Shown: positions 1 to 61,502, numbered from the stretch's first letter. The stretch is DNA of 64,000 bases from an uncultured Gemmatimonadales bacterium (GCA_963851265.1 CAWKNZ010000007.1:640001-704000), one strand, 5' to 3'. Notes: generated by a model not told the origin, from the letters alone. Translations and numbers: made by a program.

Positions 1-906
1 ATGGACGCGCCGTGGGACGACGTGGGGCGCGCGGGCGAGTGGCTGCTCGGTCTGGAGCGCGCGCTCGCTCCGGACGTGGTGCAGGTGAACGGCTACGCGC
101 ACGGCGCCGTGCCGTGGCGCGCACCGTCCGTGGTGGTGGCGCACTCGGACGTGTGCTCGTGGTGGGCGGCGGTGCGGGGGGAGGCCGCGCCCGCGTCGTG
201 GGACCGGTACCGCGCGGCCGTCACGGCGGGGCTGGCCGGGGCGGGGGCGGTGGTCGCGCCGACGCGCGCCGTCGCCCGGGACCTCGCGCGGCATTACGGC
301 TTCGCGGTGGATCGGGTGCGGGTGGTCCCCAACGCGCGCCGCGCGGACGCGTACCCGCCGGTGGCCGCGAAGGAGCCGTTCGTGCTCGCCGCGGGGCGGC
401 TGTGGGACGAGGCGAAGAACGTGGCCGCCCTCGCCCGCGTCGCCGCCGGGCTGCCCTGGCCGGTCTACCTGGCCGGCGACGCGGCGAGCCCGGACGGGCG
501 CGCGGCGGGCTGGGACGCCGCGGCCGTGCGGCCGTTAGGCACGCTCGCGCCGGGCGCGCTGGCGGCGTGGATGGGTCGTGCGGCCGTCTACGCGCTGCCG
601 GCGCGCTACGAGCCGTTCGGGCTCTCGGCGCTCGAGGCCGGGCTGGCGGGGTGCGCCCTCGTGTTGGGCGACGTTCCGAGCCTGCGCGAGGTGTGGGGCG
701 ACGCGGCGACCTACGTCGCGCCGGACGACGACGCGGGGCTCGTCGCCGCGCTGCGCACGCTCGCTGCGGACGACGCGGGCCGCGCCGCGCGCGGGGCGCG
801 CGCGCGACGCCGCGCCCTCACCTTCCCCCCGGAACGCATGGCCGACGGGTACCTCGCCGCGTACGCCGCGGCCGCCCGCGCGGGGACGGCCGTCGAGGCG
901 GCGTGA
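1..906 (+). CDS. Glycosyltransferase family 4 (GT-B), probably 5'-truncated by the window edge
   Basis: GT4 signature PARYEPFGLSALEAGLAG and GRLWDEAKN; the N-terminal domain appears to be missing; TGA overlaps the next ATG. Confidence 0.85.
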   Translation: MDAPWDDVGRAGEWLLGLERALAPDVVQVNGYAHGAVPWRAPSVVVAHSDVCSWWAAVRGEAAPASWDRYRAAVTAGLAGAGAVVAPTRAVARDLARHYGFAVDRVRVVPNARRADAYPPVAAKEPFVLAAGRLWDEAKNVAALARVAAGLPWPVYLAGDAASPDGRAAGWDAAAVRPLGTLAPGALAAWMGRAAVYALPARYEPFGLSALEAGLAGCALVLGDVPSLREVWGDAATYVAPDDDAGLVAALRTLAADDAGRAARGARARRRALTFPPERMADGYLAAYAAAARAGTAVEAA

Positions 907-2018
907 TGCGGATCGTCATCTTCTGCCACTCGCTCGCCTCCGACTGGAACCACGGGAACGCGCACTTCCTGCGCGGCACCGCGCGCGAGCTGCAGGCGCG
1001 CGGCCACGACGTGCGCGTGTGGGAGCCGGCCGGCGCGTGGAGCGCGAGCAACCTCGCCGCCGAGTACGGCGCGGCCGCGCTCGAGGGGTGGCTCGCCGCG
1101 TACCCGGCGCTCGCGCGCGTGCGGCACGTGTACGACCCTGCGCGCCTCGACGCGGCGCTCGACGAGGCGCTCGACGGCGCGGACCTCGTGCTGGTGCACG
1201 AGTGGAGCGAGCACGCGCTCGTCGCCGCGGTCGGCGCGCGGCGCGCGGCGGGCAGCGGGCGATTCCGCCTTCTCTTCCACGACACGCACCACCGCTCGGT
1301 GACCGAGCCGGAGTCGATGCGCGCGTACGACCTGCGCGCGTACGACGGCGTGCTCGCCTTCGGCGAGGCGGTGCGGCAGGTCTACCTGACCAACGGCTGG
1401 GCCGCGCGCGCGTGGACGTGGCACGAGGCGGCGGACGTCGAGGTGTTCCGCCCGCGCCCGGGCGAGCGGCGCGCCGGCGACCTCGTGTGGGTCGGCAACT
1501 GGGGGGACGAGGAGCGCACCGAGGAGTTGCGCGAGTTCCTGTTAGGCCCGGTGCACGACCTGGGGCTCAGGGCGCGCGTGCACGGCGTGCGATACCCCGA
1601 GTACGCGCGGCGGGAGCTCGCAGCCGCGGGAATCGACTACGAGGGCTGGCTCCCCAACTACGAGGCGCCGCGCGTCTTCGCGCGCTACGGCGTGACGGTG
1701 CACGTGCCGCGGCGCCCGTACGTGCGCGCGCTCCCGGGCGTCCCGACCATCCGCGTGTTCGAGGCGCTCGCGTGCGGCATTCCGCTCGTGAGCGCGCCGT
1801 GGGACGACACCGAGGGGCTGTTCACGCCCGGCGAGGACTTCCTCGTTGCGCGCGACGGCGCCGAGATGCGCGGGCGGCTCCGCGACGTGCTCGGCGACCC
1901 GGCGCTCGCGCGGGCGCTGGCCGAGCGCGGCCGGGCGACGATCCTCGCGCGCCACACCTGCGGCCACCGCGCGGAGGAGTTGCTCGCCGTCGCCCGCGCG
2001 TTAGGAATCTCGCCATGA
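906..2018 (+). CDS. CgeB-like glycosyltransferase (spore maturation protein CgeB family)
   Basis: MRIVIFCHSLASDWNHGNAHFLRG start at a TGATG overlap; C-terminal RVFEALACG...HT motif of Glyco_trans_1_2. Confidence 0.85.
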   Translation: MRIVIFCHSLASDWNHGNAHFLRGTARELQARGHDVRVWEPAGAWSASNLAAEYGAAALEGWLAAYPALARVRHVYDPARLDAALDEALDGADLVLVHEWSEHALVAAVGARRAAGSGRFRLLFHDTHHRSVTEPESMRAYDLRAYDGVLAFGEAVRQVYLTNGWAARAWTWHEAADVEVFRPRPGERRAGDLVWVGNWGDEERTEELREFLLGPVHDLGLRARVHGVRYPEYARRELAAAGIDYEGWLPNYEAPRVFARYGVTVHVPRRPYVRALPGVPTIRVFEALACGIPLVSAPWDDTEGLFTPGEDFLVARDGAEMRGRLRDVLGDPALARALAERGRATILARHTCGHRAEELLAVARALGISP

Positions 2019-3091
2019 ACATCGCCTTCTTCGGCTCGTCGATCGTCTCCGCGTACTGGAACGGCGCGGCCACCTACTACCGCGGCATCGTGCGCGCGCT
2101 GCACGACCGCGGACACCGGGTCACGTTCTACGAGCCCGACGCGTACCAGCGGCAGCAGCACCGCGACATCGCCGACCCCGACTACGCGACCGTGGTCGTC
2201 TACCCGGGCGAGGGCGAGGACGGCGTGCACGGAGTGCTCGAACGCGCGCGGTCGGCCGACCTCGTGGTCAAGGCGAGCGGCGTGGGCGTGTTCGACGCGC
2301 TGCTGGAGCGCGAGGTGGCGCGGCTCCGTGCGCCCGGACGGCTCGTCGCCTTCTGGGACGTCGACGCGCCCGCGACGCTGCAGCGCGTGCACGAGGCGGG
2401 CGCCGGCCCCGGCGCGGACCCGTTCCGCGCGCTCGTGCCAGACTACGACCTCGTGCTGACGTACGGCGGCGGCGACCCGGTCGTCGCCGCGTACGCGGCG
2501 TTGGGCGCGCGGCGCTGCGTCCCGATCTACAACGCGCTCGACCCCGAAACGCACCACCCCGTGCCGCCCGAGGAGCGGTTCCGCTCCGACTGCGTGCTGC
2601 TCGCCAACCGGCTGCCCGACCGCGAGGCGCGCATCGACGAGTTCTTCTTCCGCGCGGCGGAATCCGCGCGGGGGCGCCGCTTCCTGCTCGGCGGCAACGG
2701 CTGGCACGACCGCGCGCTGCCGCCCAACGTCGCGGCACTCGGCCACGTCTACACCGGCGACCACAACGCGGTCAACTGCTCCACGCTCGCCGTGCTCAAC
2801 GTGCACCGCGACAGCATGGTCGCCAACGGCTGGTCGCCGGCGACGCGGCTGTTCGAGGCGGCGGGGGCGGGGGCCTGCCAGATCACCGACGCGTGGCGCG
2901 GGATCGAGGAGTTCCTCGAGCCCGGGCGCGAGGTGCTCGTGGCGGACGACGGCGCGGCGGTGGCGGCGCACGTCGACGCGCTCACCCCCGATCGGGCGCG
3001 CACGATCGGCGAGGCGGCGCTCCGCCGCGTGCTGGCGCACCACACGTACGCGCACCGCGCCGCGCAGGTCGAGGCCGTACTCTGCGGATGA
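2015..3091 (+). CDS. CgeB-like glycosyltransferase
   Basis: ATGA overlap; MNIAFFGSSIVSAYWNGAATYYRG, DVDAP, RLFEAAGAG, HTYAHRA. Confidence 0.85.
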   Translation: MNIAFFGSSIVSAYWNGAATYYRGIVRALHDRGHRVTFYEPDAYQRQQHRDIADPDYATVVVYPGEGEDGVHGVLERARSADLVVKASGVGVFDALLEREVARLRAPGRLVAFWDVDAPATLQRVHEAGAGPGADPFRALVPDYDLVLTYGGGDPVVAAYAALGARRCVPIYNALDPETHHPVPPEERFRSDCVLLANRLPDREARIDEFFFRAAESARGRRFLLGGNGWHDRALPPNVAALGHVYTGDHNAVNCSTLAVLNVHRDSMVANGWSPATRLFEAAGAGACQITDAWRGIEEFLEPGREVLVADDGAAVAAHVDALTPDRARTIGEAALRRVLAHHTYAHRAAQVEAVLCG

Positions 3092-4180: not shown

Positions 4181-5026
4181 ATGACCCGCCTTCTCCAGCA
4201 GCACGCGTCCGCCGGTTCTGCGGAGCGCGAGGCCGAGATCCTCGCGCTCGGGCCGTGGTTCCACAACCTGCACCTGCCCGACGGCGCGCAGACCGCGCCC
4301 GGCCACGCGTTAGGCGACTTCCCGCGCTTCAAGTGGCTGGAGCTCGCGCCGCACCTGCCCGACGACCTGACGGGCTGGACCGCGCTCGACATCGGCTGCA
4401 ACGCGGGCTTCTACGCCTTCGAGCTGGCCAAGCGCGGCGCGCGCGTCACCGGGATCGACGTCGAGCCGCTCTTCCTCCGCCAGGCCGAATGGGCGGCGCG
4501 CGAGTACGGGCTCACCGACCGCGTCGAGTTCCGGCGGCAGGCCGTCTACGACCTCGCGCAGACCGACGGGCAGTTCGACCTCGTCCTGTTCATGGGGGTG
4601 CTCTACCATCTGCGCTACCCGATGCTCGGCCTGGACCTCGTGACCGAGAAGGTGCGGCGCCTGATGGTGTTCCAGACGCTCACCGCGCCGGGAATGGAGG
4701 TGCACCCCGACACGGCGCGCGACCGCGACGTGCTGGAGCGCGACGACTTCTCCGCGGCGGGGTGGCCCAAGCTGTCGTTCATCGAGCACCCCTTCGCGGG
4801 CGACGAGACCAACTGGTGGGCGCCGAACCACGCGGGCGTGGAGGCCATGCTGCGCGCGAGCGGCATGCGCGTGACCGCGCGCCCCGGGCACGAGATTTAC
4901 TTCTGCGAGCCGGACGCCCGGGCCGACGCGTGGCCGCGCGGCCGCGGGCGCGCGGAGCTACTCTCAGCGACGGGGCGCGCGTGGCAGGCGGAGGCCGACC
5001 GGCGCGACGCCGGGACCGACAGCTGA
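4181..5026 (+). CDS. Class I SAM-dependent methyltransferase (TIGR04290-like)
   Basis: GPWFHNLHLP N-terminus, LDIGCNAG SAM-binding motif, FMGVLYHLRYP, DETNWWAPN. Confidence 0.85.
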   Translation: MTRLLQQHASAGSAEREAEILALGPWFHNLHLPDGAQTAPGHALGDFPRFKWLELAPHLPDDLTGWTALDIGCNAGFYAFELAKRGARVTGIDVEPLFLRQAEWAAREYGLTDRVEFRRQAVYDLAQTDGQFDLVLFMGVLYHLRYPMLGLDLVTEKVRRLMVFQTLTAPGMEVHPDTARDRDVLERDDFSAAGWPKLSFIEHPFAGDETNWWAPNHAGVEAMLRASGMRVTARPGHEIYFCEPDARADAWPRGRGRAELLSATGRAWQAEADRRDAGTDS

Positions 5027-5066: not shown

Positions 5067-6965
5067 ATGACGATGATCGTGTACCGTTCCGCAACGCGTC
5101 GCGAGGCGCCGGAAGAGATGACCGAAGCGCTCGTCGACGCGGCCGCCGCCGTCGCGCGAGCGGCCGACGCGCCGGGCCCGGAGGCGCCGGGCCGGGAGGC
5201 GCCGGAGCCGGACGCGACGGGCCCGACCGCGACCGGCCCGACCGCGACGGCCCGGCGCGATCCGGTGGACTGGTGGACCGAGCGCCTCATCGAGGCCGGC
5301 GAGTTGGAGGCCGCGGTGCTCGACGCGCTGCATGCGGACGAGGACGCCGCGACGCCCGCCGCCGCGCCGCTCCGGCGGCTGACCCGCGCCGCCGCGCGCG
5401 GGCTGGCCGTCGCGCACGCCGCCGAGCGCGCCCCGGCGCGCGGCGTCGACGCGGGCCCGTCGCTCGCCCGCGCGCACGCCGCCCTCGCGGCCGCGGCGCA
5501 CGTGGCGGCCGTCGCGGTGCGCGACGCGGCCGCGGCGCTGCCGGGCGACGTGAGCGTCGGCGTGCCCGAGGGCTACGCCTACTACGGTCTCTACCCCGAG
5601 ACGTACGCGGCCGCGGCGCGGGAGTTCGCCACGCGCGTGGGGCCGCCGCGCGCGCTCGTCGTCGGGATCCGCGGCATCGGCACCGGGCTCGCCGCCGTCG
5701 TCGCCGACACGCTCGGCCGGCGCGGCGTCGACGTGCAGAGCGTGTCGGTCCGCCCGCGCGGCCACCCGTTCGACCGCACGCTCGCCCTCGACGCCGCGCT
5801 CGACGCGCTCCTGCGCGAGTACGCGACGCGCCCCGGCGCGTGGGTCGCGGTCGTCGACGAGGGGCCGGGCCTCAGCGGGTCGTCGCTCGCCGGCACCGCC
5901 GCGGCGCTCGCGGCGCGCGGGTTCGACGACGCGCGCATCGTGCTCTTCCCGAGCTGGGACACCGACGGCACCGGTCTGGTCAGCGACGCGGCGCGCGCGC
6001 GGTGGCCCCGCCACCGCCGGTTCGTCGCGAGCTTCGACGACGTGGTGATGGGGCGCGGCGGCCCGCGCTGGCCAGAGCACGGCGACGGTCCGCTCGAGAA
6101 CGTGGGCGGCGGGGCGTGGCGCGACCGGCACTGGGCGGCCGACCACCCCGACCGCCCCGCGATCCACCCGCATCACGAGTCGCGCAAGTACCGGCATGCG
6201 GCGCCCGACGGCGAGGACGCGCCGGTGTGGCACACGTTCGCCGGCCTCGGGCGGTACGGCCGCGCGCGAATGGCGATGGCCGAGCGGCTGGCCGCGGCCG
6301 GCTTCGGACCGCGCGTGCTCGGGTTGCGGCGCGGCTTCCTCGCCACCGCCGAGCACGCGGGGCGGCCGCTCGGGAGGCAGGACGCGTCGCCCGAGGTGCT
6401 CGACGCAATGGCGCGCTACCTCGCCTGGCGCCGGCGCGAGCTGCCGGGCACGCGCACGGTCTCGCTCGACGCGCTGCGCGAGATGGTCGGCCACAACGTG
6501 CGCCTCGCGCTCGGCGACGCGCTGGCCGACCGCGCGCTCGGCGTCGCGCGCGTCACGCCGGCGATCGAAGCGGCGCCGGTGGTGGCGATCGACGGCCGCA
6601 TGCAGCCGCACGAGTGGGTGCGCGGGCCTGCGGGACTCGTCAAGACCGACGGTCACGCGCACGGCGACGACCACTTCCTCCCCGGCGCGCAGGACGTGGC
6701 GTGGGACGTGGCCGGCGCGTGCGTCGAGTGGGAGCTCGCGCCCGAGGCGCGCGCGCGCTTCGTCGACGCGTACGCGGGGGCGGCGGACGACGCGGGCATC
6801 CGCGACCGGCTGCCGTTCCACGAGGTGGCCTACCTCGCCTTCCGGCTCGGCTACGCGACGCTCGGCGCGCAGGGACTCGGCGACCACGCCGACGCGGCGG
6901 GGCTGCGCGCGGCGGGCGGCCGCTACGCGGAGCGCCTGCGCGCGCTCCTGGCCGACCCCGCCTAA
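5067..6965 (+). CDS. Hypothetical protein with PRTase-like N-terminal and APH/kinase-like C-terminal motifs
   Basis: 632-aa ORF in the operon; VVGIRGIG and VVDEGPGLSGSSL (PRPP-loop-like); DGRMQPHEW/KTDG/DVAWDVA (phosphotransferase-like). Confidence 0.65.
   Translation: MTMIVYRSATRREAPEEMTEALVDAAAAVARAADAPGPEAPGREAPEPDATGPTATGPTATARRDPVDWWTERLIEAGELEAAVLDALHADEDAATPAAAPLRRLTRAAARGLAVAHAAERAPARGVDAGPSLARAHAALAAAAHVAAVAVRDAAAALPGDVSVGVPEGYAYYGLYPETYAAAAREFATRVGPPRALVVGIRGIGTGLAAVVADTLGRRGVDVQSVSVRPRGHPFDRTLALDAALDALLREYATRPGAWVAVVDEGPGLSGSSLAGTAAALAARGFDDARIVLFPSWDTDGTGLVSDAARARWPRHRRFVASFDDVVMGRGGPRWPEHGDGPLENVGGGAWRDRHWAADHPDRPAIHPHHESRKYRHAAPDGEDAPVWHTFAGLGRYGRARMAMAERLAAAGFGPRVLGLRRGFLATAEHAGRPLGRQDASPEVLDAMARYLAWRRRELPGTRTVSLDALREMVGHNVRLALGDALADRALGVARVTPAIEAAPVVAIDGRMQPHEWVRGPAGLVKTDGHAHGDDHFLPGAQDVAWDVAGACVEWELAPEARARFVDAYAGAADDAGIRDRLPFHEVAYLAFRLGYATLGAQGLGDHADAAGLRAAGGRYAERLRALLADPA
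5171..5253. repeat. Degenerate in-frame 15-bp tandem repeat (about 5.5 units)
   Basis: gccgggcccggaggc/gccgggccgggaggc/gccggagccggacgc/gacgggcccgaccgc/gaccggcccgaccgc, encoding PGPEA-PGREA-PEPDA-TGPTA-TGPTA. Confidence 0.75.
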
Positions 6966-6974
6966 CACGCCGCC

Positions 6975-7580: not shown

Positions 7581-8563
7581 TCGAAGCCGTCAAGCTCTGG
7601 AACGAGCCCAACAATCAGTCCCACTGGGACTTCCACATCGACCCGCGCTGGGAGCGCTTCTCCGAGATGGCCGGCGGTGCGGCGCGGCGCATCAAGGCGC
7701 TCGCCCCGGAGCTGCCGATCGTGTTGGGCGGCATGTCGCCCATCGACGCGAGCTGGCTGCGCCTCGTGGGGAGCCACGGTCTGCTCGACCTCGTCGACGT
7801 CGTCGCCGTTCACGGCTTCCCGCTCGACTGGAACCACTGGAACATCAATCAGTGGCCCGACAAGATCGCCGAGATCGAGCGCGAGACGTCGAAGCCGGTG
7901 TGGGTGACCGAGGTGGGGGTGTCGACGTTCGGCGCCGACGAGGTGCAGGAGTTCGGGCTTCGGCGCACCACCGAGCTGCTGGCCGACCGCGTGCCGCGCG
8001 CGTTCTGGTACTCGCTGCTCGACCTGCCGCCGACGTGGGAGGCCACCACGCGCCACCGCGAGAGCGAGGGGAGCGCGTACTACCGGCACTTCTACATGGG
8101 GCTCATCCGCGACGACCGAACCTTCAAGCCGTCGGCGGCGCACTTCGACCCGCGGTTAGGCATCTGCCAGTGGTTCCACTACGAGGACCACCGGCTCGAC
8201 TTCGCCGTCGGCGCGCTCAAGCAGCTCGGCGTGAAGAAGCTGCGCACCGGCCTGTCCTGGGCCGACTGGCACCGCCCCAACGCCCTCGCCTGGTTCGACC
8301 GGCAGATGGAGGCACTCGCCGACTTCGACGTCACGGTCACGCTCTGCTTCACGCCGCCGTCGCGCGGCATCAAGGAGCACCACACGAGCCCCCCGCGCGA
8401 GCCCGCCGAGTTCGGCGACTTCGCCGAGGCCATGGTGCGGCGCTACGTGCTCGGCCAGCGCGACGCCGGGGCGGTCGGCGCGCCCGTCGTGGCGGACGCG
8501 GAGGGCCCGGCGGGGGCGGAGACGCTGCTCGTGAGTCGCGACGTGGTGGAGGCGGCGCCGTGA
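7577..8563 (+). CDS. Clan GH-A glycoside hydrolase ('beta-xylosidase'-like), apparently circularly permuted
   Basis: ATGA overlap; WNEPNN acid/base motif at the N-terminus, VWVTEVG nucleophile motif, LGVKKLRTGLSW near the C-terminus. Confidence 0.8.
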   Translation: MIEAVKLWNEPNNQSHWDFHIDPRWERFSEMAGGAARRIKALAPELPIVLGGMSPIDASWLRLVGSHGLLDLVDVVAVHGFPLDWNHWNINQWPDKIAEIERETSKPVWVTEVGVSTFGADEVQEFGLRRTTELLADRVPRAFWYSLLDLPPTWEATTRHRESEGSAYYRHFYMGLIRDDRTFKPSAAHFDPRLGICQWFHYEDHRLDFAVGALKQLGVKKLRTGLSWADWHRPNALAWFDRQMEALADFDVTVTLCFTPPSRGIKEHHTSPPREPAEFGDFAEAMVRRYVLGQRDAGAVGAPVVADAEGPAGAETLLVSRDVVEAAP

Positions 8564-9638: not shown

Positions 9639-10238
9639 GTGCGTCTGTTCCTCGTCCGCCACGCGCTGGTCGACCCGGTCGGGGTCTCGCTCCCGGGCCG
9701 CACGCCGGGCGTCTCGCTCAACGCGGCCGGGCGCGCGCAGCTCGCGCCGTTAGGCGCGCGCGTCGCCCGCCGGCTCGCCGGCGCGCCGCTCGACGCGGTG
9801 CTCGCCAGCCCTCTCGCGCGCGCGCAGGAGACGGCGGCCGCGATCGCCGGGCGGTACGGGCTGCCGGTCACCGTCGAACCCGCGCTCCACGAACTCGACC
9901 TCGGCCGCTGGACGGGGCGCGCCCTCGCGGGCCTGGGCGACGACCCGGATTGGGTGCCGTTCAACACGTACCGGAGCGGCACGCCGGCCGGTGGCGGCGA
10001 GCTCGCGGCGGTGGCGCAGGCGCGCGCCGTAGCGGCACTGCTCGCGCGCGCGCGTGCGACGCCCGACGCCGCCGTCGCGGCGGTGAGTCACGGCGACGTC
10101 GTGCGGGCCGTGCTCGCGTACGTGCTGGGCGTCCCCATCGACCTGCAGCTGCGGATCGAGGTCGCGCCGGCCTCGGTGAGCGAGATCGAACTGCGACCCT
10201 GGGGACCGCGCGTCCTGGCTCTGAACGACGTATCCTAG
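9639..10238 (+). CDS. Histidine phosphatase (phosphoglycerate mutase) family protein
   Basis: LVRHA, SPLARAQETA, ELDLGRW, VSHGDVVR. Confidence 0.85.
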   Translation: MRLFLVRHALVDPVGVSLPGRTPGVSLNAAGRAQLAPLGARVARRLAGAPLDAVLASPLARAQETAAAIAGRYGLPVTVEPALHELDLGRWTGRALAGLGDDPDWVPFNTYRSGTPAGGGELAAVAQARAVAALLARARATPDAAVAAVSHGDVVRAVLAYVLGVPIDLQLRIEVAPASVSEIELRPWGPRVLALNDVS

Positions 10239-10278: not shown

Positions 10279-11346
<1,068 letters not shown>

Positions 11347-15698: not shown

Positions 15699-15706
15699 GC
15701 CTGACG

Positions 15707-18892: not shown

Positions 18893-18933
18893 GGCGTCAG
18901 GCGCGCGACCGCCGCGCGCCTAACGCCTCCCGG

Positions 18934-34716: not shown

Positions 34717-34719
34717 CGC

Positions 34720-43140: not shown

Positions 43141-45939
<2,799 letters not shown>

Positions 45940-51621: not shown

Positions 51622-53975
51622 GCACGCGCGTCGGCGTACCGCGTCTCGTGGCGCCGCTGGTTGGGCTGTTGGGTGCGGCGGCCGGCGCGCAGGTCCCGGG
51701 CGCGCCCGCGCCACACGCCGCGGCGCGCGACACCGCGACACGTGACTCTGCCACACGTCACGCCGCGGTCCGTGACACGAGCGCGCGGCACGCGCCGGCG
51801 CGGCTCTCGCCCGTGGTCGTCGTCGCCGGGCGCCTGACGCGACCGGCCGGCGGGGCCGGGGCGGCCGCGCGCGTTGACGAGGCCGGGCCCGACGCGCGCA
51901 CGGCCGCGCGGCCGCCGGTGGGCGGGCCTGCGCCCGCGGCCGCCCTGCTGGCGCGCCTGCCCGGCGTGAGCAGCTTCGACGACCAGGGCACGCGCGCGCA
52001 GCCCACCCTCGACGTGCGCGGGTTCACGCTGTCGCCGGTGGTGGGCGTTGGGCAGGGGGTGAGCGTGTTCCTCGACGGCGTGCGCGTGAACGAGGCGGAC
52101 GCGCAGGAGGTGAACTTCGACCTGCTGCCGGCCGAGGCGGTGCGCGGGGCCGAACTCGTGCGCGGGCCGTCGGCGCTGTACGGCAAGAACACGTTAGGCG
52201 GTGCGCTCGTGCTCACGACGCGCCGCGGCGGCGACGGCGGCCCCGCGCTCGACGCCGGTGCGGACGCCGGCGCGTTCGGGCAGCGGGGGGTGCGGTTCGC
52301 GGCGTCGGGCGCGCGCCCGTTGGGCGCGCCGGCCGTGGGCGGCGCGGCCGTCGACGGCTACGTGCTCGCGCGGTCGTCGCGGGAGGACGGGTGGCGCGAC
52401 GCGACCGCGGCGCGGCGGCAGCTGCTGTTCGCGACGGGGGGGCGGCGCGACGCCTCGGGCGACGTCGCGCTCTCGGTGCTCGCGGCCCGCGACTCGCTGG
52501 GCCAGGCCGGCTCGCTGCCCGAGAGCTGGCTCGCCGCGGGGGGCGACGCGGCACGGCGCGCCAACTACACGCCCGGCGACTGGTACGCGCCGACCACCCT
52601 CGAAGTCGCCCTGCGCGGCCGGCGGCGGGTGGGCGCCCCCGACGCGTCCGCGTCCGAGGTGCGCGGCACGCTGTTCGTGCGTGACACCCGGAGCGGGCAG
52701 TTCAACGTGAACGCGGACGCGCCGAGTACGCTGGCGCGGGTGGTCGCGGCCAGCGCGGGCGGGACGGTCGAGGGGGAGCGGCGGACCCGCCTGTTGGGCA
52801 CCCCACTCGTCGCGATCGTGGGGGGCGAGGTCTCGCGCGACGCCGTGCGCTACCGCGTGTTCGAGCGCGCGTCGGGGCCGTCGCGGTCGGCGCAGCCCGA
52901 CGACGCGTGCGCGCCGGCCGCGTCGTCGGGCGGCGACGCGCTCTGCGAGGACGCGACGGCGAACGCGCTCAACGGGGCGGCGTTCGCGCAGGGAGTGCTG
53001 GCGCCGGGCGGGCGCGTCTCGCTCGTCGCGAGTTTGCGCGCCGACTGGGTGCGGGTGCCGTTCGTCGACCGCCAGACCCCGGCGAACTCGGGCACGAGCG
53101 CGTTCCGGCAGCTCTCGCCGCGCGTGGGCGTGACCGTGACGCCGGCGCCCGCCTGGCGCGCGTACGCGACCGTCGGGACGGGATTCCGCGCGCCGGCGGC
53201 GGTCGAGCTCGCCTGCGCCGACCCGTCGAGCCCCTGCCCGCTCCCGTTCTCGTTAGGCGACGACCCGCCGCTGCGGCCCGTCCGCGTGCGCAACGCGGAG
53301 GCGGGCGCGGACTGGACGCCCGCGCCGCTCGTCGCGTTCACGGCGAGCGCGTTCCGCGCCGACGTGCGCGACGAGATCCTGCTCGTCGCGAGCGAACGCA
53401 CCGCGGGGTACTTCACGAACTTCCCGCGCACGCGCCGCGCGGGGCTGGAGCTGACGGCGCGCGCCGGGCCGGCGCCCGGGGGACGCGCCGGCGGCGTGTC
53501 GGCGTTCGCGTCGTGGGCCCTCGTGCGCGCGACCTACGAGGCCGACGGGCTGCTAGCGTCGGCGCGCGCGACGCCGGACTCGGTGCACCCCGGCGACCGG
53601 CTGCCTCTCACGCCCGAGACGCGTGCGACGGCCGGGGTGCGCGCGGAAGGGCGCGCCGGGGGGGTTGCGTTAGGCGCGGAACTGTCGGCGTCGGCCGTCG
53701 GGCCGCAGCGCATGCGCGGCGACGAGGGCGGGGCCGGGGCGCCGCTGCCGGGCTACGCGCTCACCGCGCTCGGCCTCAGCGCGGCGCGCGGCCGGGTGCG
53801 GGCCGACGTGTCGGTGTGCAACCTGTTCGACCGGCGGTACGTGACGTTCGGGACGTGGGCACCGAACGCGCTCGCCCCGGACCGGCAGCGGCTCGTGGGT
53901 GGGGAACGGGTGGAGCGCTTTCTCACACCCGGGTACCCGCGCGCCGTGGCGATCGGCGTGAGCGTGGCCCGGTAG
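51618..53975 (+). CDS. TonB-dependent receptor
   Basis: GTGA overlap; plug motifs LDGVRVN and ELVRGPSALYG; FRAP, NLFDRRY, GYPR near the C-terminus. Confidence 0.82.
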   Translation: MSTRVGVPRLVAPLVGLLGAAAGAQVPGAPAPHAAARDTATRDSATRHAAVRDTSARHAPARLSPVVVVAGRLTRPAGGAGAAARVDEAGPDARTAARPPVGGPAPAAALLARLPGVSSFDDQGTRAQPTLDVRGFTLSPVVGVGQGVSVFLDGVRVNEADAQEVNFDLLPAEAVRGAELVRGPSALYGKNTLGGALVLTTRRGGDGGPALDAGADAGAFGQRGVRFAASGARPLGAPAVGGAAVDGYVLARSSREDGWRDATAARRQLLFATGGRRDASGDVALSVLAARDSLGQAGSLPESWLAAGGDAARRANYTPGDWYAPTTLEVALRGRRRVGAPDASASEVRGTLFVRDTRSGQFNVNADAPSTLARVVAASAGGTVEGERRTRLLGTPLVAIVGGEVSRDAVRYRVFERASGPSRSAQPDDACAPAASSGGDALCEDATANALNGAAFAQGVLAPGGRVSLVASLRADWVRVPFVDRQTPANSGTSAFRQLSPRVGVTVTPAPAWRAYATVGTGFRAPAAVELACADPSSPCPLPFSLGDDPPLRPVRVRNAEAGADWTPAPLVAFTASAFRADVRDEILLVASERTAGYFTNFPRTRRAGLELTARAGPAPGGRAGGVSAFASWALVRATYEADGLLASARATPDSVHPGDRLPLTPETRATAGVRAEGRAGGVALGAELSASAVGPQRMRGDEGGAGAPLPGYALTALGLSAARGRVRADVSVCNLFDRRYVTFGTWAPNALAPDRQRLVGGERVERFLTPGYPRAVAIGVSVAR

Positions 53976-54086: not shown

Positions 54087-55745
54087 ATGCGCCTCCCGTC
54101 CGCCCTCCTCGCGCTCGTGCCCGCGCTGCTCGCGGGCGCCGCACCTTCAGTCCACGCGCAGCGCGCGGCGCGGGCCGCGCCGGCCGCGATCTCCCCCGCC
54201 GAGATCGACGGCGACCTCAAGTTCCTCTCGTCCGACCTGCTGGAGGGCCGCGCCCCCGCCACGCGCGGCGGCCGTCTCGCCGCCGACTACATCGCGAGCC
54301 AGTTGCGCGTGGCCGGCGTCTCGCCCGGCGTTGGTGACTCGTCCTACCTGCAGCGGGTGCCGATCGACGTCGTGAAGGCCGACCCAGCGACGATCCGCGT
54401 CGGCGCGTCGGGCAGGGCGACCGCGACGCTCCGCTTCACCGACGACGTGGTGGTCTGGGCGGGCTCCGCGACCGACTCGAGCGCGGCGCGCGGCGAGGTG
54501 GTCTTCGTCGGCTACGGCGCCGCGGCCCCGGAGTACAGGTGGGACGACTTCAAGGGCGTGGACGTGAAGGGCAAGTGGCTCATGGTCCTCGTCAACGACC
54601 CGCCGGCACCACCCGACGAGCCGACGCTCTTCGGCGGCAAGGCGATGACGTACTACGGGCGGTGGACCTACAAGTACGAGGAGGCCGAGCGGCGCGGCGC
54701 GGCCGGAATGCTGATCGTGCACACCACCGAGCGCGCGGGCTACCCGTGGCAGGTGGTCGTCGGCTCCAACTCGGTCGAGCACCGGCTGCTGCCGCGCGAC
54801 CCCGCCGGCCCCGCCCCGATCGGCGTGCGCGGGTGGATCAAGGACACCGTCGCGGCCTCGTTGCTCAAGCAGGCGGGGCTGGACTTCGATTCGCTGCGGG
54901 CGCGGGCCGCGCGCCGCGACTTCCGCCCGGTGAGCACCGGCATCGTGCTCGACGCGTCGTTCCGCAACCGCGTGTCGCACCTCGCCTCGGAGAACGTGGT
55001 CGGCGTCGTGCGCGGCGCGGCGCGGCCGGGCGAGTACGTCGCGCTGTCGGCCCACTGGGACCACCTCGGCATCGGCCCGGCGGTGAACGGCGACTCGATC
55101 TACAACGGCGCGCTCGACAACGCGTCGGGCGTGGCCGACCTGCTCGCCGTCGCGCGCGCGTCGGCCGCGGCGCCCCGGCCCGCGCGCTCGCTGCTCTTCG
55201 TGTTCGTCACCGCCGAGGAGTCGGGACTGCTCGGCAGCGCGTGGTTCGCCGAGCACCCGACGGTGCCGGCCGCCGGGCTGGTCGCCAACCTCAACCTCGA
55301 TGGCGGCAACCTGCTCGGGCGCGTGCGCGACCTCAACGTCCTGGGCGAGACGAAGAGCGCGTTAGGCCCGATGCTGGCCGCGTTCGCGCGCCCGCGCGGG
55401 CTGCGGCTCGACCCGGAGGAGCACCCCGAGCAGGGGCACTTCTACCGCTCCGACCACTTCTCGTTCGCCAAGGCCGGCGTACCCGCCGTGAGCATCGGCC
55501 CGGGCACCGACTACGTCGGGCGGCCGGCGGGGTGGGGGAAGGCGCAGGACGAGGCGTACACGGCGAAGCACTACCACCAGCCGAGCGACGAGTACCGGCC
55601 CAACTTCGACCTCTCGGGCGCGGTGCAGCTGTCGCAGCTCGTGTTCGATTTCGCGCACTCGCTCGCCAACTCGACCGCGTGGCCGACGTGGAACGCGGAC
55701 GCGGAGTTCAAGCGGCCGGCGGCGGCGCGGACTGCGGCGCGGTGA
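54087..55745 (+). CDS. M28 family aminopeptidase with PA domain, secreted
   Basis: EGR, YYGRWTYKYEEA, AHWDHLG, NGALDNASG, AEESGLLGS, RSDH, YHQPSDE. Confidence 0.9.
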   Translation: MRLPSALLALVPALLAGAAPSVHAQRAARAAPAAISPAEIDGDLKFLSSDLLEGRAPATRGGRLAADYIASQLRVAGVSPGVGDSSYLQRVPIDVVKADPATIRVGASGRATATLRFTDDVVVWAGSATDSSAARGEVVFVGYGAAAPEYRWDDFKGVDVKGKWLMVLVNDPPAPPDEPTLFGGKAMTYYGRWTYKYEEAERRGAAGMLIVHTTERAGYPWQVVVGSNSVEHRLLPRDPAGPAPIGVRGWIKDTVAASLLKQAGLDFDSLRARAARRDFRPVSTGIVLDASFRNRVSHLASENVVGVVRGAARPGEYVALSAHWDHLGIGPAVNGDSIYNGALDNASGVADLLAVARASAAAPRPARSLLFVFVTAEESGLLGSAWFAEHPTVPAAGLVANLNLDGGNLLGRVRDLNVLGETKSALGPMLAAFARPRGLRLDPEEHPEQGHFYRSDHFSFAKAGVPAVSIGPGTDYVGRPAGWGKAQDEAYTAKHYHQPSDEYRPNFDLSGAVQLSQLVFDFAHSLANSTAWPTWNADAEFKRPAAARTAAR

Positions 55746-55790: not shown

Positions 55791-57242
55791 GTGACGTCAG
55801 GGCAACCCACTCCCACCGTCGCCCCCGCGCAGGCGGGGGCCCACCCGACCCGGCCGACGGAGCCGGCCCACCCCGCGGGCCCTCGGCTCGTCCGCGCGCT
55901 CGGCCCGCTCGGGCTCGGCGCGGCGATCGTCAACGTGATCGTCGGCGGCGGGATCTTTCGTCTCCCGTCGGGGGCCGCCGCGGCGTTGGGCACGGCCGCG
56001 CCGATCGCCTACGTCGCGTGCGCGGCCGCGATGGCGCTGATCGTCCTCTGCGTCGCCGAGGCGGGGAGCCGCGTGGGGCGCACGGGCGGGCTCTACGCGT
56101 ACGTCGAGGTCGCGTTCGGCCCGTTCGTCGGATTCGTCGCGGGGGTGATGCTCTACGCCTGCATGGCGGCGGCGCTCGGCGCCGTGTCGTCGTTCCTCGC
56201 CGACCTGCTCGGCGCGATCATGCCCGCGCTCGCGGCCGGGGTGCCGCGCGCGGCCGCGCTGCTCGCGATCCTGGCGGCGTTCGCCGCGCTCAACGTGCGC
56301 GGCGTGCGCGCCGCGAACCGGACCAACGCGGTGCTCACGGCCGCCAAGCTCGTGCCCCTCGCGCTGTTCGTCGTGCTCGGCGCGTTCGCGGTGCGCGCGC
56401 CCAACCTCGCGATCCGCGCGCTCCCGTCGGGCGGCGACGTCGCGCGCACGGCGACGTTCCTCATCTTCGCCTTCCTCGGCGTCGAGAGCGCGCTGGCGCC
56501 GAGCGGCGAGGTGCGCGACCCGGCGCGGACCGTGCCGCGCGCGCTCTTCGGCGCGATGGCCGCGGTGACCGTGATCTACCTCGCCGTGCACCTCGTCGCC
56601 GAGGGCGTGCTGGGCGCCGCGCTCGCGACGAGCAAGACGCCCGTGGCCGACGCGGCAGGCGTGGCGTTAGGCGGCTGGGGGCGCGCGCTCGTCCTCGCCG
56701 GGTCGCTCGTGTCGATGCTCGGCTACGTGGGCGGGATGACGTTCGCGGCCCCGCGCATGCTGTTCGCCCTCGGCCGCGACGGCTTCCTCCCGCGCGGGCT
56801 CGCCGCGGTGCACCCGCGCTTCCGGACGCCGTACGTGGCCGTGCTCGCGCAGACGGCCGTCACCGCCGTGCTCGCCCTCGGCGGCGCCTTCGAGCGGTTG
56901 GCCCTCGTCGCGAACGGGGCCGCCCTGCTCGTGTACGCCGCGTGCTGCGCGGCCGCGTGGGAGCTGCGGCGGCGCGACGTGCGCGAGGGCGGGGGAGAGC
57001 CGCTCCGGACGCGCGTGGGTGCCGTGGCGCCGTGGGCGGCGATCCTGGTCATCGCCTGGCTGCTGAGCGGCCTCAAGCGCGACGAGTTGATGTGGGTCGG
57101 CGGGACCGCGCTCGCGGCCGTCGCGGTGTACGCCGTGGTGGGCGTGCGGCGCGCTACCGGCGGCGTGGCGCGAGCGGTCATCGCGGGGGCGAGCGCGGGC
57201 ACGCCGGGCGGCGGTCGTTCGTCGCCGCCCGGCTCGGGGTGA
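55791..57242 (+). CDS. APC family amino acid permease (start uncertain)
   Basis: IVGGGIF, GGLYAY, FAFLGVE, EVRDPARTVPRA, HPRFRTP; about 12 TM segments. Confidence 0.88.
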   Translation: MTSGQPTPTVAPAQAGAHPTRPTEPAHPAGPRLVRALGPLGLGAAIVNVIVGGGIFRLPSGAAAALGTAAPIAYVACAAAMALIVLCVAEAGSRVGRTGGLYAYVEVAFGPFVGFVAGVMLYACMAAALGAVSSFLADLLGAIMPALAAGVPRAAALLAILAAFAALNVRGVRAANRTNAVLTAAKLVPLALFVVLGAFAVRAPNLAIRALPSGGDVARTATFLIFAFLGVESALAPSGEVRDPARTVPRALFGAMAAVTVIYLAVHLVAEGVLGAALATSKTPVADAAGVALGGWGRALVLAGSLVSMLGYVGGMTFAAPRMLFALGRDGFLPRGLAAVHPRFRTPYVAVLAQTAVTAVLALGGAFERLALVANGAALLVYAACCAAAWELRRRDVREGGGEPLRTRVGAVAPWAAILVIAWLLSGLKRDELMWVGGTALAAVAVYAVVGVRRATGGVARAVIAGASAGTPGGGRSSPPGSG

Positions 57243-57258: not shown

Positions 57259-58491
57259 ATGCATCCCGACCCCCTCCTGCGCTTCCGCCCCGAGTTCCCG
57301 ACACTCGCGAACTCGACGTACCTCGTCTCCAACTCGCTCGGCGCGATGCCGCGCGCGACGCGCGACCGCCTCAACGCGTACGCCGACGCGTGGACGGCGC
57401 GCGGCGTGCGCGCGTGGGCCGACGCGTGGTGGGAGCTGCCCGTCTCGGTCGGTGACGTCGTCGCCCCGCTCATCGGCGCGCCCGCCGGCACCGTCGCGAT
57501 GACGCCCACCGTGACGCTCGCGCACGCGGCCGTGGTCACGGCCCTCGACTTCGGCGGCGCGGCGGGCGGCGCGGCCGGCGGCACGCCGCGCGACACGATC
57601 GTGATGACCGCGCTCGACTTCCCCAGCGTGCGCTACGCCGTCGAGGCGATGGCGGCCCGGCTCGGCGCGCGCGTCGTCGTCGTCGAGAGCGAGGACGGGA
57701 TCACCGTCGACGCCGACGCCGTGTGCGCGGCCGTGGACGAGCGCACGCGGCTCGTCGCGGTGTCGCACGTGCTCTTCCGGTCCGCGTTCGTCATGGACGC
57801 CGAGCGGATCGTGCGGCACGCGCACGCGGCGGGCGCGCTGGTGATGCTCGACGCGTACCACTCGGCGGGGGTGATGCCGGTGGACGTGGTCGCGTTAGGC
57901 GTGGATTTCCTGGCGGGTGGCGTGCTCAAGTGGCTCTGCGGTGGGCCGGGCGGGAGCTTCCTGTACGTGTCGCCCGAGGTCGAGGCGCGGGCCGGGGCGC
58001 CCGTGCGCCCCGCGCTCACCGGGTGGCAGGCGCACGCGCGGCCGTTCGCGTTCGACACCGCGATGGAGCGCGCCAACGGCGCGTGGGGGTGGCTGGGCGG
58101 GACGCCGGTCGTGCCCGCCCTGTACGCCGCCATCGAGGGCCCGCGGATCCTCGCCGCGGCCGGCATGGACGCGGTGCGCGCGAAGAGCACGCGGCAGACC
58201 GGGCGGCTGATCGCGCTCGCCGACGCGCGCGGCTACCCGGTCCGTGCGCCGCGCGATCCGGAGCGCCGCGGCGGTACGGTCGCCTTCGACGTGCCGCACG
58301 GCTACGAGGTCGCGCAGGCGCTGCTCGCGCGCGACGTGGTGATCGACTACCGGCCGGGGGCGGGGATCCGCGTCGCCCCGCATTTCTACACGAGCGACGA
58401 GGAGCTCGAGGGCGCGGTCGGAGCGATCGACGAGATCCTGGAGCAGGGAGCCTGGCGCGCGTTCGAGGGGCGGCGCGCGGTCGTGACCTGA
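57259..58491 (+). CDS. PLP-dependent class V aminotransferase, kynureninase-like
   Basis: NSLG, DFPS, DAYHSAG, KWLCGGPG, GW, RVAPHFY. Confidence 0.8.
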   Translation: MHPDPLLRFRPEFPTLANSTYLVSNSLGAMPRATRDRLNAYADAWTARGVRAWADAWWELPVSVGDVVAPLIGAPAGTVAMTPTVTLAHAAVVTALDFGGAAGGAAGGTPRDTIVMTALDFPSVRYAVEAMAARLGARVVVVESEDGITVDADAVCAAVDERTRLVAVSHVLFRSAFVMDAERIVRHAHAAGALVMLDAYHSAGVMPVDVVALGVDFLAGGVLKWLCGGPGGSFLYVSPEVEARAGAPVRPALTGWQAHARPFAFDTAMERANGAWGWLGGTPVVPALYAAIEGPRILAAAGMDAVRAKSTRQTGRLIALADARGYPVRAPRDPERRGGTVAFDVPHGYEVAQALLARDVVIDYRPGAGIRVAPHFYTSDEELEGAVGAIDEILEQGAWRAFEGRRAVVT

Positions 58492-60262: not shown

Positions 60263-60283
60263 ACCGCCGGGCATGAGCTCGGG

Positions 60284-61255
60284 ATGAACGGCGCCCTCCT
60301 CCGCGAATCAACCGCCGTCCGCACCGCGCGAGCGTCGGGGCGGCCGGTGGTCCTCCTCGAGAGTTCGGTGCTCGCGCAGGGGCTGCCCATTCCCGCCAAC
60401 CGCGAGGCCGCGGACCGCATGGTCGCGGCCGTGCGCGGCGCCGGCGCCGAGCCCGCGATCAGCGCCGTCGTGCGCGGCAGGCCCGCGCTCGGGCTCGAGG
60501 ACGACGAGCTCGAACGGTTCCTCGCCCGCGACGGCGTGCGCAAGGTGAGCGCGCGCGACCTCGCCGCCGCCATGCTCGACCGGGCCGACGGGGCGACCAC
60601 GGTCGCGGCCTCGCTCGCCCTCGGCCGGCTCGCGGGCGTGCCGGTGTTCGCCACGGGCGGAATCGGCGGCGTGCACCGCGATCTGCCCGGGACGCCCGGC
60701 GCGGGCGCGCCGACGGCCGGCGGGGTGCGCGACGAGTCCGCCGACCTGCTCGAGCTGGCGCGCGCGCCGATGGTCGTCGTCTGCGCCGGGGCGAAGTCGA
60801 TCCTCGACCTGCCCGCGACGCTCGAGCGGCTCGAGACGCTCGGCGTGCCCGTGGTCGGGTACCGCACGCGCCGGCTGCCGGGCTTCTTCACGGCCGACGC
60901 GGGGCTCCCGGTGCCGCACACGGTCGAGCGCGCGGGCGACGTCGCGGCGCTCTGGCGCCACCAGCAAGCGTTAGGCAGGTCGGAGGCCGTGCTCGTCGTG
61001 CAGCCGCCGCCCGCGGACGCGGCGCTGCCGGCCGCCGTGGTCGACGGCGCGGTGGCCGAAGCGCTCGCCGCGGCGGGGCGCGACGGGGTGAGCGGGGCGG
61101 CGGTGACGCCCTACCTCCTCGGCGCGGTGGAGCGCGCCACGGGCGGTCGTTCGCTCGCCGCCAACCTCGCCCTGCTCGAAGCCAACGCGCGGCTGGCCGC
61201 CGAGATCGCGCGCGAGATCGCGCGCGATCTGGCGGCGGCCCCGCCCGACGCCTAA
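60284..61255 (+). CDS. psuG: Pseudouridine-5'-phosphate glycosidase
   Basis: LES...GLP.P.N, KVSARD, GATTVA, FATGGIGGVHR, DESADL, CAGAKSILD, VTPYLL. Confidence 0.9.
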   Translation: MNGALLRESTAVRTARASGRPVVLLESSVLAQGLPIPANREAADRMVAAVRGAGAEPAISAVVRGRPALGLEDDELERFLARDGVRKVSARDLAAAMLDRADGATTVAASLALGRLAGVPVFATGGIGGVHRDLPGTPGAGAPTAGGVRDESADLLELARAPMVVVCAGAKSILDLPATLERLETLGVPVVGYRTRRLPGFFTADAGLPVPHTVERAGDVAALWRHQQALGRSEAVLVVQPPPADAALPAAVVDGAVAEALAAAGRDGVSGAAVTPYLLGAVERATGGRSLAANLALLEANARLAAEIAREIARDLAAAPPDA

Positions 61256-61502
61256 CGCATCGCCGCGGTTCGGGCGCGCCGGGCGGCGCGCGAACCGGTT
61301 CGGCCGTTCGGCGCCGCGTTCGAGGGAGCGCTCGCCGCGGGGCCCGGCGGCGGCGGCGACCATTTGTTTACATCTCGCACACAAAGAATCGTGTGCGCGG
61401 TGACGCCGCCGGGGGCGGTCGGGTCCGCTCTTCCGTTGCGCCCGCGTCCGGTCGCCGTCGCCGTTGACGCGCGGGCACCGCCCCCCCCGCGCAGGAGAAA
61501 GC

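Follow-up and report, generated by a model that had tools for sequence, protein, structure and literature searches.

Uptake sequences dispersed over bacterial chromosomes have been described as DUS in Neisseriaceae and USS in Pasteurellaceae. Recently acquired genes are reported to be without DUS (PMC2397512), and according to another account neisserial islands are poor in DUS, while prophages of Pasteurellaceae are reported to acquire USS with residence (PMC7371117). A second USS within 100 bp reportedly gives no extra uptake in Haemophilus (PMC7811141), and the GC content of genes has been described as rising with recombination (10.1101/011023). The cyanobacterial word HIP1 was recently linked to transformation (PMC13756078), and in integrons the core of the attC site is given as GTTRRRY (PMC7370490). 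Here we describe a dispersed word, GTTAGGC, on which our literature search retrieved no paper. We consider it about evenly balanced whether Y-GTTAGGC-R is a putative DNA-uptake-sequence-like tag, spread by recombination drive and possibly first tuned to cassette DNA, and this is the reading that we favour.

The window, a stretch of 64,000 nucleotides, belongs to the genome labelled G000, whose source organism is a Gemmatirosa-like Gemmatimonadaceae. It holds 29 copies, 18 starting as GTTAGGC and 11 as GCCTAAC, each at the coordinate listed in the initial annotation, which had put the chance expectation at roughly 5; base composition gives 5.4 and a second-order model 1.5. With dicodon gene calls the copies fell exactly into the classes proposed before. 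Twenty-one are in-frame nnG-TTA-GGC: after GCG on the + strand (4309..4315, 53669..53675, 55361..55367, 56666..56672, 57894..57900 and 60970..60976) and on the - strand (39364..39370 and 45604..45610), after CCG (+ 534..540, 9749..9755 and 50146..50152; - 45145..45151), after CTG (+ 1541..1547 and 29054..29060; - 35104..35110), after ACG (+ 11211..11217 and 52193..52199; - 43354..43360), after TCG (+ 28076..28082 and 53252..53258) and after CGG (+ 8155..8161). The gene with three of these copies (43354, 45145 and 45604) indeed encodes the aconitase AcnA, and that at 50146 an ExaC-type aldehyde dehydrogenase. Four copies form GCC-TAA-C stops, three of them on the - strand at the ends of + strand genes (6960..6966, gene 5118-6965; 29274..29280, gene 27699-29279; 61250..61256, gene 60347-61255) and one on the + strand at the end of a - strand gene (15706..15712, gene 15707-16711). 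One forms a CGT-TAG-GC stop (34718..34724, -, in the - strand gene 34720-35655), one is read as Ser-Pro-Asn (15498..15504, -, in the + strand gene 14170-15615) and two are intergenic (17674..17680, +, and 18918..18924, -). TTA codons outside the word are few, as had been noticed: 21 of the 27 TTA codons of the window genes lie inside GTTAGGC, and genome-wide the same is true of 993 of 1,287.

Throughout the genome GTTAGGC occurs 1,762 times, compared to 96 expected from an order 2 Markov model (18x), under which it is the top-ranked 7-mer, or 127 at order 3. At orders 4 and 5 the expectation rises to 1,047 and 1,722, since the motif itself generates the sub-words on which these models rest. 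Synonymous shuffles, which the initial annotation had called for, yielded 57-61 copies in genes with a genome-wide codon pool and 72-80 with a within-gene pool, against 1,288 observed. The copies include 993 in-frame TTA-GGC, 272 that lie antisense within genes, 278 between genes and 196 that overlap stops. Leucine is written TTA in 27% of nCG-Leu-GGC contexts, compared to no more than 1.9% where any other codon follows. Where a gene ends GCC-stop-C, the stop is TAA in 129 of 264 cases; with a base other than C in the next position, TAA is used in 4 of 81.

The base at -1 is Y (C 79%, T 14%) and the base at +1, in spacers, is a purine in 76%, giving the full word Y-GTTAGGC-R; this flank preference had escaped the initial annotation. 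The word behaves as exact and all-or-none. Between genes the exact word is present 202 times against 10 expected, and inner one-base variants do not exceed 1.6x. The suggestion that GTTGGGC is a relaxed form holds weakly: TTG accounts for 8.8% before GGC and for 0.6-4.9% before the other codons that start with G, but the enrichment of CGTTGGGC in spacers, 1.6x, is on a par with that of CGTTCGGC (1.5x), compared to 20x for the exact word.

Neighbouring copies keep apart. Gaps below 300 bp number 77, where an eligible-site null predicts 186. In G000, G012, G001, G004 and the plasmids of G. kalamazoonensis, over the pair distances examined, up to 2 kb, the pair correlation between 60 and 250 bp is mostly 0.2-0.6. 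This avoidance is present in all orientations where it was counted, opposite-strand pairs included. The avoidance extends to about 300 bp. A replichore strand bias, which the initial annotation had proposed to test, was not found on C1 and C2, the 2.1 of 4.6 Mb covered (co-oriented 210/1349, head-on 139/775; in spacers 42:39; for KOPS as the control 221:118), and word use is flat along the replichore, at 12-21%. Within the genus, orthologous sites are kept above chance: retention is 22/37 with G001 (19 against 9.2 expected) and 21/33 with G004 (16 against 6.4), with four-fold codons 59% identical in this comparison. Between genera, position conservation does not go beyond chance (4 against 3.6, a small sample), which counts against uptake. 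Enrichment, shuffles, orthologous retention and spacers together uphold the earlier view of a signal at the DNA level, silent in genes and restricted to lineages.

An uptake sequence, one of the options named in the initial annotation, agrees with most of these features. In the uptake-tag reading that we favour, the bacteria would be naturally competent, some competence component would read the word on double-stranded DNA with uptake preferring it, and biased uptake followed by homologous recombination would spread the word through the chromosome. Short fragments of about 300 bp would make close copies redundant, the preference may have arisen for cassette DNA, with two copies per attC, and prophages would gain the word with residence. 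Word use climbs with codon typicality (4% to 31%) and with GC3 (6% to 30%), both taken as proxies for residence; the GC3 gradient may reflect residence time rather than recombination. Spacers carry 14.7 copies per 10 kb when convergent, 5.0 when tandem and 3.1 when divergent, and copies are fewer near gene starts. A core stretch of 45 kb has zero copies and is tolerated, therefore no site is essential. The genome contains a comEA-like, pilB, pilT and pilC cluster, comEC and pilins, and so do motif-poor kin. Several observations speak against uptake. Competence genes and candidate pilins fail to track the word between rich and poor genomes: comEC is found in 40 of 41 genomes and in 5/5 of a same-genus panel, comEA-like matches, all below the family cut-off, in 35/36 rich and 38/44 poor genomes, and a PilX-like pilin in 28/36 rich and 25/44 poor ones, though not in the motif-rich G303. 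Inverted pairs within 30 bp are few (6, five of them just past gene ends), single copies being enriched at convergent ends, and the frequency of the tripeptides is not raised (ALG 1.12, TLG 1.03, PLG 0.97, SLG 1.19).

The word is patchy across the order Gemmatimonadales, even inside one genus (1 copy in 77 kb of G292, 105 in 93 kb of G400), and a minority of the phylum carries it enriched. The label 'lineage-specific' was right as to restriction to lineages and too narrow as to extent, since two contigs of Chthoniobacterales, a group in a second phylum, also have it dispersed along them. On the plasmids of G. kalamazoonensis its density is 42 and 38 per 50 kb. Some phage contigs of unassigned host, chosen for several copies of the word, reach 20-35 copies per 10 kb, above the 10-16 of the densest host stretches examined, which again counts against uptake. 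A tag common to two phyla and to cassettes is, moreover, a poor 'self' mark.

The main rival to the uptake reading holds that an intracellular sequence-specific DNA-binding protein (a nucleoid organiser, a counter-silencer or a defence 'self' reader), horizontally spread among soil lineages, acts over about 300 bp, with weak selection keeping the sites and phages mimicking them; we regard it as possible, though on balance unlikely. In tailed phages that are not related to one another, genes for terminase, portal and virion proteins contain the word in frame. Whole phage records hold 39 copies over 44 kb, 28 over 50 kb and 27 over 25 kb, where controls have 9, 7 and 6, although the record G419 barely exceeds its control (28 against 20). 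The prophages of Pasteurellaceae reported to gain USS with residence (PMC7371117) indicate, however, that phage copies need no intracellular reader. The similar exclusion distance across a 3.5-fold density range suits such a protein, as do the paucity of copies near gene starts and in divergent spacers, and the contrast between G292 and G400 suits a mobile reader gene. Conversely, copies lie 2.6 kb apart on average, therefore most DNA is outside any 300-bp zone, and the copy-free 45-kb stretch adds to this difficulty. Three genomes of the source genus have a motif-poor parS block, but this exclusion is absent in G012, G303, G400, G322 and G291. Our search returned no candidate protein as reader of the word, be it inside the cell or in uptake. 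A nucleoid-protein site, among the earlier suggestions, may be what the word represents.

Extending the uptake reading, soil lineages of Gemmatimonadales and Chthoniobacterales might share, by convergence or receptor-gene transfer, a putative uptake system with the attC core as address label, which would fish the cassettes of any neighbour from environmental DNA; molecular drive would then have spread the label over chromosomes, megaplasmids and phages. We put this forward as a doubtful proposal; if true, no earlier uptake sequence would have had foreign mobile DNA as its target, and none would have been common to more than one phylum.

GTTAGGC fits the attC core pattern GTTRRRY / RYYYAAC, and among the R boxes of local attC sites the word, Y and R flanks included, is the most frequent: 6 of 8 attC R' boxes are spelled as the word in G000 and 8 of 10 in the motif-poor G027. 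In spelling, the earlier proposal of a recombinase site stood, but as a matter of genes it did not, since integrase genes do not track the word. That an integron integrase or derived tyrosine recombinase is the reader, the dispersed copies being its binding or secondary recombination sites, seems to us improbable. An integrase scores above the cut-off in 25 of 41 genomes. However, the densest genome surveyed, G012, has broken integrase pieces only, that of G001 is below the cut-off and has a stop, none was found in G008, G016, G018, G002 (two of them 78-79% complete) or G400, and intact integrases occur in the motif-poor G007, G009, G014 and G292. In G000 the integrase-type N-terminal domains are those of IntI, XerC, XerD and one genus-level recombinase, with no extra one. 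The paired hairpin layout of attC (R''-L''-L'-R', 55-150 bp) is confined to small arrays on C6 and C10 and fails for the dispersed copies; over the whole genome the 1,762 copies form only 12 GCCTAAC...GTTAGGC pairs no more than 160 bp apart. Other GTTRRRY words reach at most 3.6x in spacers, and insertion into genes should select against such sites.

A methyltransferase or repair site had been another of the earlier suggestions. An origin or fixation of the word through a methyltransferase or methyl-directed repair, on the lines of the proposal made for HIP1, which is reported to raise transformation in a methylation-dependent way (PMC13756078), is very improbable and was largely refuted by the methylome and the methylase distribution. 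G000 does have an orphan Eco57I/MmeI-like adenine methyltransferase gene, but so have 40 of 41 genomes, rich or poor alike; no C5 methylase turned up in the 5/5 genomes searched, three of them motif-rich; and the SMRT methylome of motif-rich G. kalamazoonensis lists only RGATCY, ATGCAC and CCAGN7TCA (PMC3974934). Still less credible is a Chi-like site for AddAB/RecBCD, to which the initial annotation had likened the word, or a KOPS/XerD-like signal of replication architecture. An addAB-like pair is present in G000, and Chi is reported to be dense in phages at times and, in H. influenzae, orientation-independent in one assay (10.1101/2021.07.08.451572). Yet the absence of polarity and the flat use reported above speak against it, an AddAB locus was found in 5/36 rich against 17/44 poor genomes (several incomplete; p=0.02, kin not being independent), in genus g48 it was found in the poor member only, and the XerD arm of dif, TTATGTAAACC, differs from the word. 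A signal acting in translation or on the mRNA, such as control by the rare TTA codon or a codon-pair effect, deserves almost no credence: more than half of the copies are in-frame TTA-GGC and a tRNA-Leu(taa) is present, but the antisense, intergenic and stop-overlapping copies, a stop choice set by the base after the stop, and the mutual avoidance of opposite-strand pairs all contradict it.

Compared to known systems, GTTAGGC resembles Chi as a non-palindromic 7-8-mer in core genes that is also found in phages, and differs from it in having no polarity, in not being explained by codon usage and in that AddAB was not found in most of the motif-rich genomes. Like HIP1 (GCGATCGC; cyanobacteria), as described in PMC5861425 and PMC13756078, it is hyper-abundant, conserved in and between genes and graded across its phylum, HIP1 too having long been of unclear function; unlike HIP1, it is not its own reverse complement, goes without methylation in a motif-rich strain, is carried by a minority of the phylum and shows exclusion near 300 bp. 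With the attC R'/R'' cores it shares its letters, including the Y/R flanks of local arrays, and the GCC-TAA-C stops as at cassette ends, whereas the dispersed copies are single, sit within core genes and need no intact integrase. From DUS and USS it differs in its shorter word (7-9 bp against 9-12), in using the rarest codon with tripeptides not raised (xLG 0.97-1.19x; compared with the account in PMC2817400), in its few inverted terminator pairs, in its patchiness inside a genus and presence in a second phylum, in being identical to the attC core and in its density in some phages. What it has in common with DUS and USS is a short non-palindromic word in thousands of copies, on both strands and mostly genic, with orthologous conservation, scarcity in recently acquired genes, an excess at gene ends, a putative redundancy of close pairs, a comparable density (as high as 1 per 0.7 kb) and a host with type IV pilus and competence genes.

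All 29 copies of GTTAGGC or its complement GCCTAAC that the initial annotation had reported in the window were recovered, every coordinate matching, and our own gene calls reproduced their distribution over 21 in-frame nnG-TTA-GGC, four GCC-TAA-C, one CGT-TAG-GC, one Ser-Pro-Asn and two intergenic copies. The enrichment is real and extends over the whole 4.6-Mb assembly of this organism (G000), in which all 12 contigs carry the word at 33-55 per 100 kb and the total of 1,762 copies, against 96 expected under a Markov model of order 2, makes it the top-ranked 7-mer. With genes predicted by a self-trained dicodon caller (3,805 genes, 88% coding), 1,288 genic copies were counted compared to 57-80 in six synonymous, codon-preserving shuffles, and 993 of the 1,287 TTA codons fall in the word. 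Leucine between nCG and GGC is encoded by TTA in 27.1% of cases (n=2,876), against at most 1.9% when other codons follow. Since the excess over shuffles and the context dependence of TTA are both seen genome-wide, the dispersed signal proposed initially stands. Amino-acid preference was tried as a cause and rejected, and so was an assembly artefact, because independent genomes carry the word at orthologous positions and a cultured strain has it as well. Based on FtsA, which shares 93% identity with entries labelled Gemmatirosa sp. and uncultured Gemmatimonadales, G000 is a Gemmatirosa-like member of the Gemmatimonadaceae; all 80 loci kept from this search bear titles of Gemmatimonadota or of bacteria without a name.

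In spacers, which are free of codon constraint, 202 copies of the exact 8-mer were counted where 10 are expected, and the consensus reads Y-GTTAGGC-R, with C (72%) or T (16%) at -1, a purine (76%) at +1 and flanks otherwise without strong signal. One-base variants reach at most 1.6x in spacers at the five inner positions and up to 3.6x at the last two, so that GTTGGGC, initially thought to be perhaps a relaxed form, rather resembles a mutational neighbour. The signal resides in DNA and not in mRNA, because 272 copies of G000 lie antisense inside genes, 278 are intergenic and 196 overlap stop codons, and because the choice of TAA depends on the next base (129 of 264 genes with a GCC-stop-C end, compared to 4 of 81 where the base after the stop is not C). 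These antisense and intergenic copies leave a translational or mRNA cause an almost negligible probability. GTTAGGC is an exact, strand-neutral word that is maintained against codon preference.

A second copy within about 300 bp has diminishing value: neighbour gaps of 0-50, 50-100, 100-200 and 200-300 bp were observed 18, 7, 20 and 32 times in G000, compared to 36.5, 32.4, 61.7 and 55.6 expected when used sites are redrawn among eligible sites. This soft exclusion, ending at 250-400 bp, is also found in G012 (a further Gemmatimonadales genome), in G001 and G004 (same genus as G000) and in the G. kalamazoonensis plasmids, and holds for opposite-strand pairs too (G000, G012). The use of eligible sites in G000 rises from 4% to 31% over codon-typicality deciles and from 6% to 30% over GC3 quintiles calculated with motif codons removed, and such sites are used less in the opening 270 bases of a gene. 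Density in spacers peaks between convergent genes (14.7 per 10 kb, vs 5.0 in tandem and 3.1 in divergent spacers), and stops are overlapped more in convergent genes (100/1070 vs 112/2725). Comparison of orthologous positions, as the initial annotation had advised, showed sites to be kept within the genus (22/37 and 21/33, four-fold codons being 59% identical); retention between G000 and G012 is at chance level. No single site is essential, and density is graded across genomes.

For the replichores of G000, we took C2:1,368,968, where gene orientation switches, to be dif, and C1:13.1 kb to carry a DnaA-box cluster, both located with consensus patterns. On C1 and C2 there is no replichore polarity (210/1349 co-oriented vs 139/775 head-on, p=0.16), and spacer copies split 42:39, compared to 221:118 for the KOPS control; a polarity hint from a partial test (16.8% vs 13.1%) was reversed and not significant in this fuller test. 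In G000:C2:1000000-1600000, where core genes cluster, 67-94% of genes are co-oriented toward dif on both terminus sides, an orientation described for Gemmatimonadota. A 45-kb stretch around parS (G000:C1:182877-227963) is devoid of the word, with a chance of about 5e-5, and contains, beside parA/parB, two perfect palindromes TGTGGCACGTGCCACA, a parS variant that recurs in three further genomes of this genus. At four-fold codons, this stretch is less similar to relatives (identity 0.55 vs 0.62-0.68). The orthologous genes carry 4 copies in 32 genes vs 17 in 43 flanking genes in G001, and 3 in 31 vs 27 in 45 in G004. Exclusion from parS or the origin was rejected as a general rule, being striking in G000, partial in the G001 and G004 orthologues and absent in five genomes (G303, G012, G400, G322, G291).

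At least 40 YGTTAGGC per Mb are found in 15 of 41 relatives (G000 counted in), belonging to two of three sampled families, the densest reaching about 1,400 per Mb. Of 401 genomes sampled evenly over the phylum, 23 reach 40 CGTTAGGC per Mb by hand count; by group, at least 40 per Mb occur in 16/96 genomes of this family, 7/166 of the second, 0/5 of the third and 0/134 outside the order. These tallies take in one unpublished, motif-poor genome (G011), on which alone no claim depends. The word is absent from a 5-kb Roseisolibacter locus and from a 15-kb locus of similar GC. Within a single genus (g48), G292 has 1 copy in 77 kb vs 105 in 93 kb in G400, 63 in 62 kb in G239 and 31 in 20 kb in G296, and over 52 site comparisons, which are not independent, the aligned codons of G292 are never TTA. 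Of the G. kalamazoonensis plasmids, one 50-kb stretch has 42 copies and another has 38, compared to about 1 expected.

Viral contigs were scanned for the pattern in sets of 122, 6 and 100 stretches, and 79 of 119 metagenome stretches were analysed. Most matches were not dispersed copies: the viral scans gave mostly chance pairs and attC-like arrays, and the metagenome scan many attC arrays and repeats, besides five contigs on which one or several genes match G000 at 55-66% identity. Dispersed in-frame copies do occur in unrelated tailed phages, picked for carrying several copies (L400, 32 in 16 kb; L491, 21 in 5.9 kb; L497, 18 in 7.1 kb). In whole phage records, 39 copies in 44 kb stand against 9 in the control, 28 in 50 kb against 7, 27 in the 25 kb of a Mu-like provirus against 6, and 28 in 57 kb against 20. 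A protein of one motif-bearing phage matches a G000 protein at 47% identity; no host emerged from the terminase relatives of the dense phage. L400, the densest phage contig, has 23 copies in its 9-kb non-structural part (1-9100) and 9 in the 7 kb of terminase-portal-capsid genes (9100-16067). Short-gene arrays with attC-like GCCTAAC...GTTAGGC pairs every 300-400 bp on viral contigs L310 (6576-11390), L326, L396 (8591-10556) and L398 are apparently phage-borne cassette arrays. In L271 (G303:C4), a small element with integrase and primase genes that the assembly duplicates in part, the density of the word is close to that of the host, and attC-like pairs are among the copies. Two metagenome contigs carry housekeeping genes with products that fall into 90% clusters with entries named Spartobacteria and Chthoniobacterales. 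One has 13 copies over 7.0 kb and the other 8 over 5.3 kb, three on each having been required by the pattern; all 21 have C at -1, and 17 have T at -2. A pair of contigs is too little to establish a genome-wide pattern in Chthoniobacterales.

We infer that a sequence-specific protein reads GTTAGGC, and give an uptake-like drive, by analogy with uptake sequences, about an even chance of being its source. Biased uptake of DNA carrying the word, followed by recombination, would yield most features at once. The redundancy of close copies fits such uptake, because uptake gains nothing from a second USS within 100 bp (PMC7811141), and so do the low use in atypical genes and the conservation in core genes, since uptake sequences are scarce in newcomer genes and conserved in the core (PMC2397512). 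The GC3 gradient would follow if GC3 tracks recombination (10.1101/011023), the 45-kb hole would be tolerated, and phage copies could be gained by resident prophages, which are reported to acquire uptake sequences (PMC7371117). What speaks against uptake is that some phages are very dense in the word, that competence genes do not follow its distribution, and that, unlike DUS/USS, it employs the rarest codon with tripeptide frequencies unchanged. G000 has comEA-like, pilB, pilT, pilC and comEC genes and four pilin loci; comEC, comEA-like genes and a PilX-like pilin are present in rich and poor genomes alike, and minor-pilin clusters, comEC and comEA were rejected as reader since none tracks GTTAGGC. 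Of the 41 genomes, comEC is missing only from motif-poor G021 (2.5 Mb, 96% complete), where no comEA-like match was found either. The minor-pilin cluster G000:C3:171436-175722 (L155:6436-10722) ends in the 636-aa PilX-like protein, found in 53/80 genomes, which may resemble the Thermus tip pilin ComZ. Its Atlas neighbours are of the PilX_N/DUF4900 type, PDB gave no sequence match, and a single-sequence model (pLDDT 30) was set aside. An intracellular reader is the next candidate, possible and distinctly less probable.

GTTAGGC also fits the attC core consensus GTTRRRY/RYYYAAC (PMC7370490) and forms the R' box in 6/8 attC sites of the C10 array of G000 and 8/10 in G027. The motif-poor genomes G027 and G029 have few copies, many of them in inverted pairs spaced 80-125 bp that recur about every 500 bp and represent attC arrays; integrons are already known in Gemmatimonadota (PMC8618304). 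Of the two G000 loci with attC arrays, C6:1-6230 (L007) is an integron with a short cassette array and an integrase gene interrupted by a serine-recombinase element, and C10:188936-211285 (L008) is a second cluster without integrase. No more than a few dozen of the 1,762 copies belong to such arrays. The probability of a fortuitous match is 16 in 8,192 with the consensus and 1 in 8,192 with the modal box, uncorrected for the many known motifs that might have been hit, and we judge coincidence rather unlikely. Under the uptake reading, the attC identity together with the second phylum suggests cassette DNA as the external template. The integron integrase itself is a quite improbable reader and was rejected, as the presence of its genes does not track the word.

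Methylation as the cause is highly improbable, the published G. kalamazoonensis methylome comprising RGATCY, ATGCAC and CCAGN7TCA only (PMC3974934), and no C5 methylase was found in five of five genomes searched. A single-copy orphan Eco57I/MmeI-like adenine methyltransferase gene occurs in 40/41 Gemmatimonadales genomes, rich or poor; in G000 it lies outside the window (C7:582086-585511, L006:7087-10512, minus strand), encodes about 1,100 aa with an NPPW motif and adjoins a helicase-like gene. A Chi-like site is even less probable, given the missing polarity and an AddAB locus in 5/36 rich vs 17/44 poor genomes (kin not independent); by two queries the locus was found in 22/80 Gemmatimonadales genomes, many near-complete ones showing none. 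A XerD-type site was rejected because the XerD arm at dif differs from the word. The probability remaining beyond these readings belongs to causes we have not thought of.

If the uptake reading is true, GTTAGGC would be a third tag system, in abundant soil phyla, making sequence-tagged DNA exchange wider than thought, and its identity with the integron core would link natural transformation to gene-cassette movement between soil bacteria. With an intracellular reader, the word would instead represent an undescribed chromosome or self-recognition code, copied by phages. On either reading, a cultured strain carries GTTAGGC, the rich/poor contrast within one genus is useful for the reader search, and the word is a simple sequence marker for host-phage assignment. 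We found no description of this enrichment in the literature covered, which lies outside subscription journals and supplementary tables. To our knowledge, no more than two proteobacterial families have established uptake sequences, and the cyanobacterial palindrome HIP1 is the sole other hyper-abundant word of such kind. GTTAGGC resembles HIP1 (PMC5861425; PMC13756078), and differs from DUS/USS in using the rarest codon and leaving tripeptide frequencies unchanged (PMC2817400). As it lacks the tripeptide excess of DUS and two features of HIP1, we do not class it as a member of either; by analogy, it appears to work most like the DUS/USS of Neisseriaceae and Pasteurellaceae.
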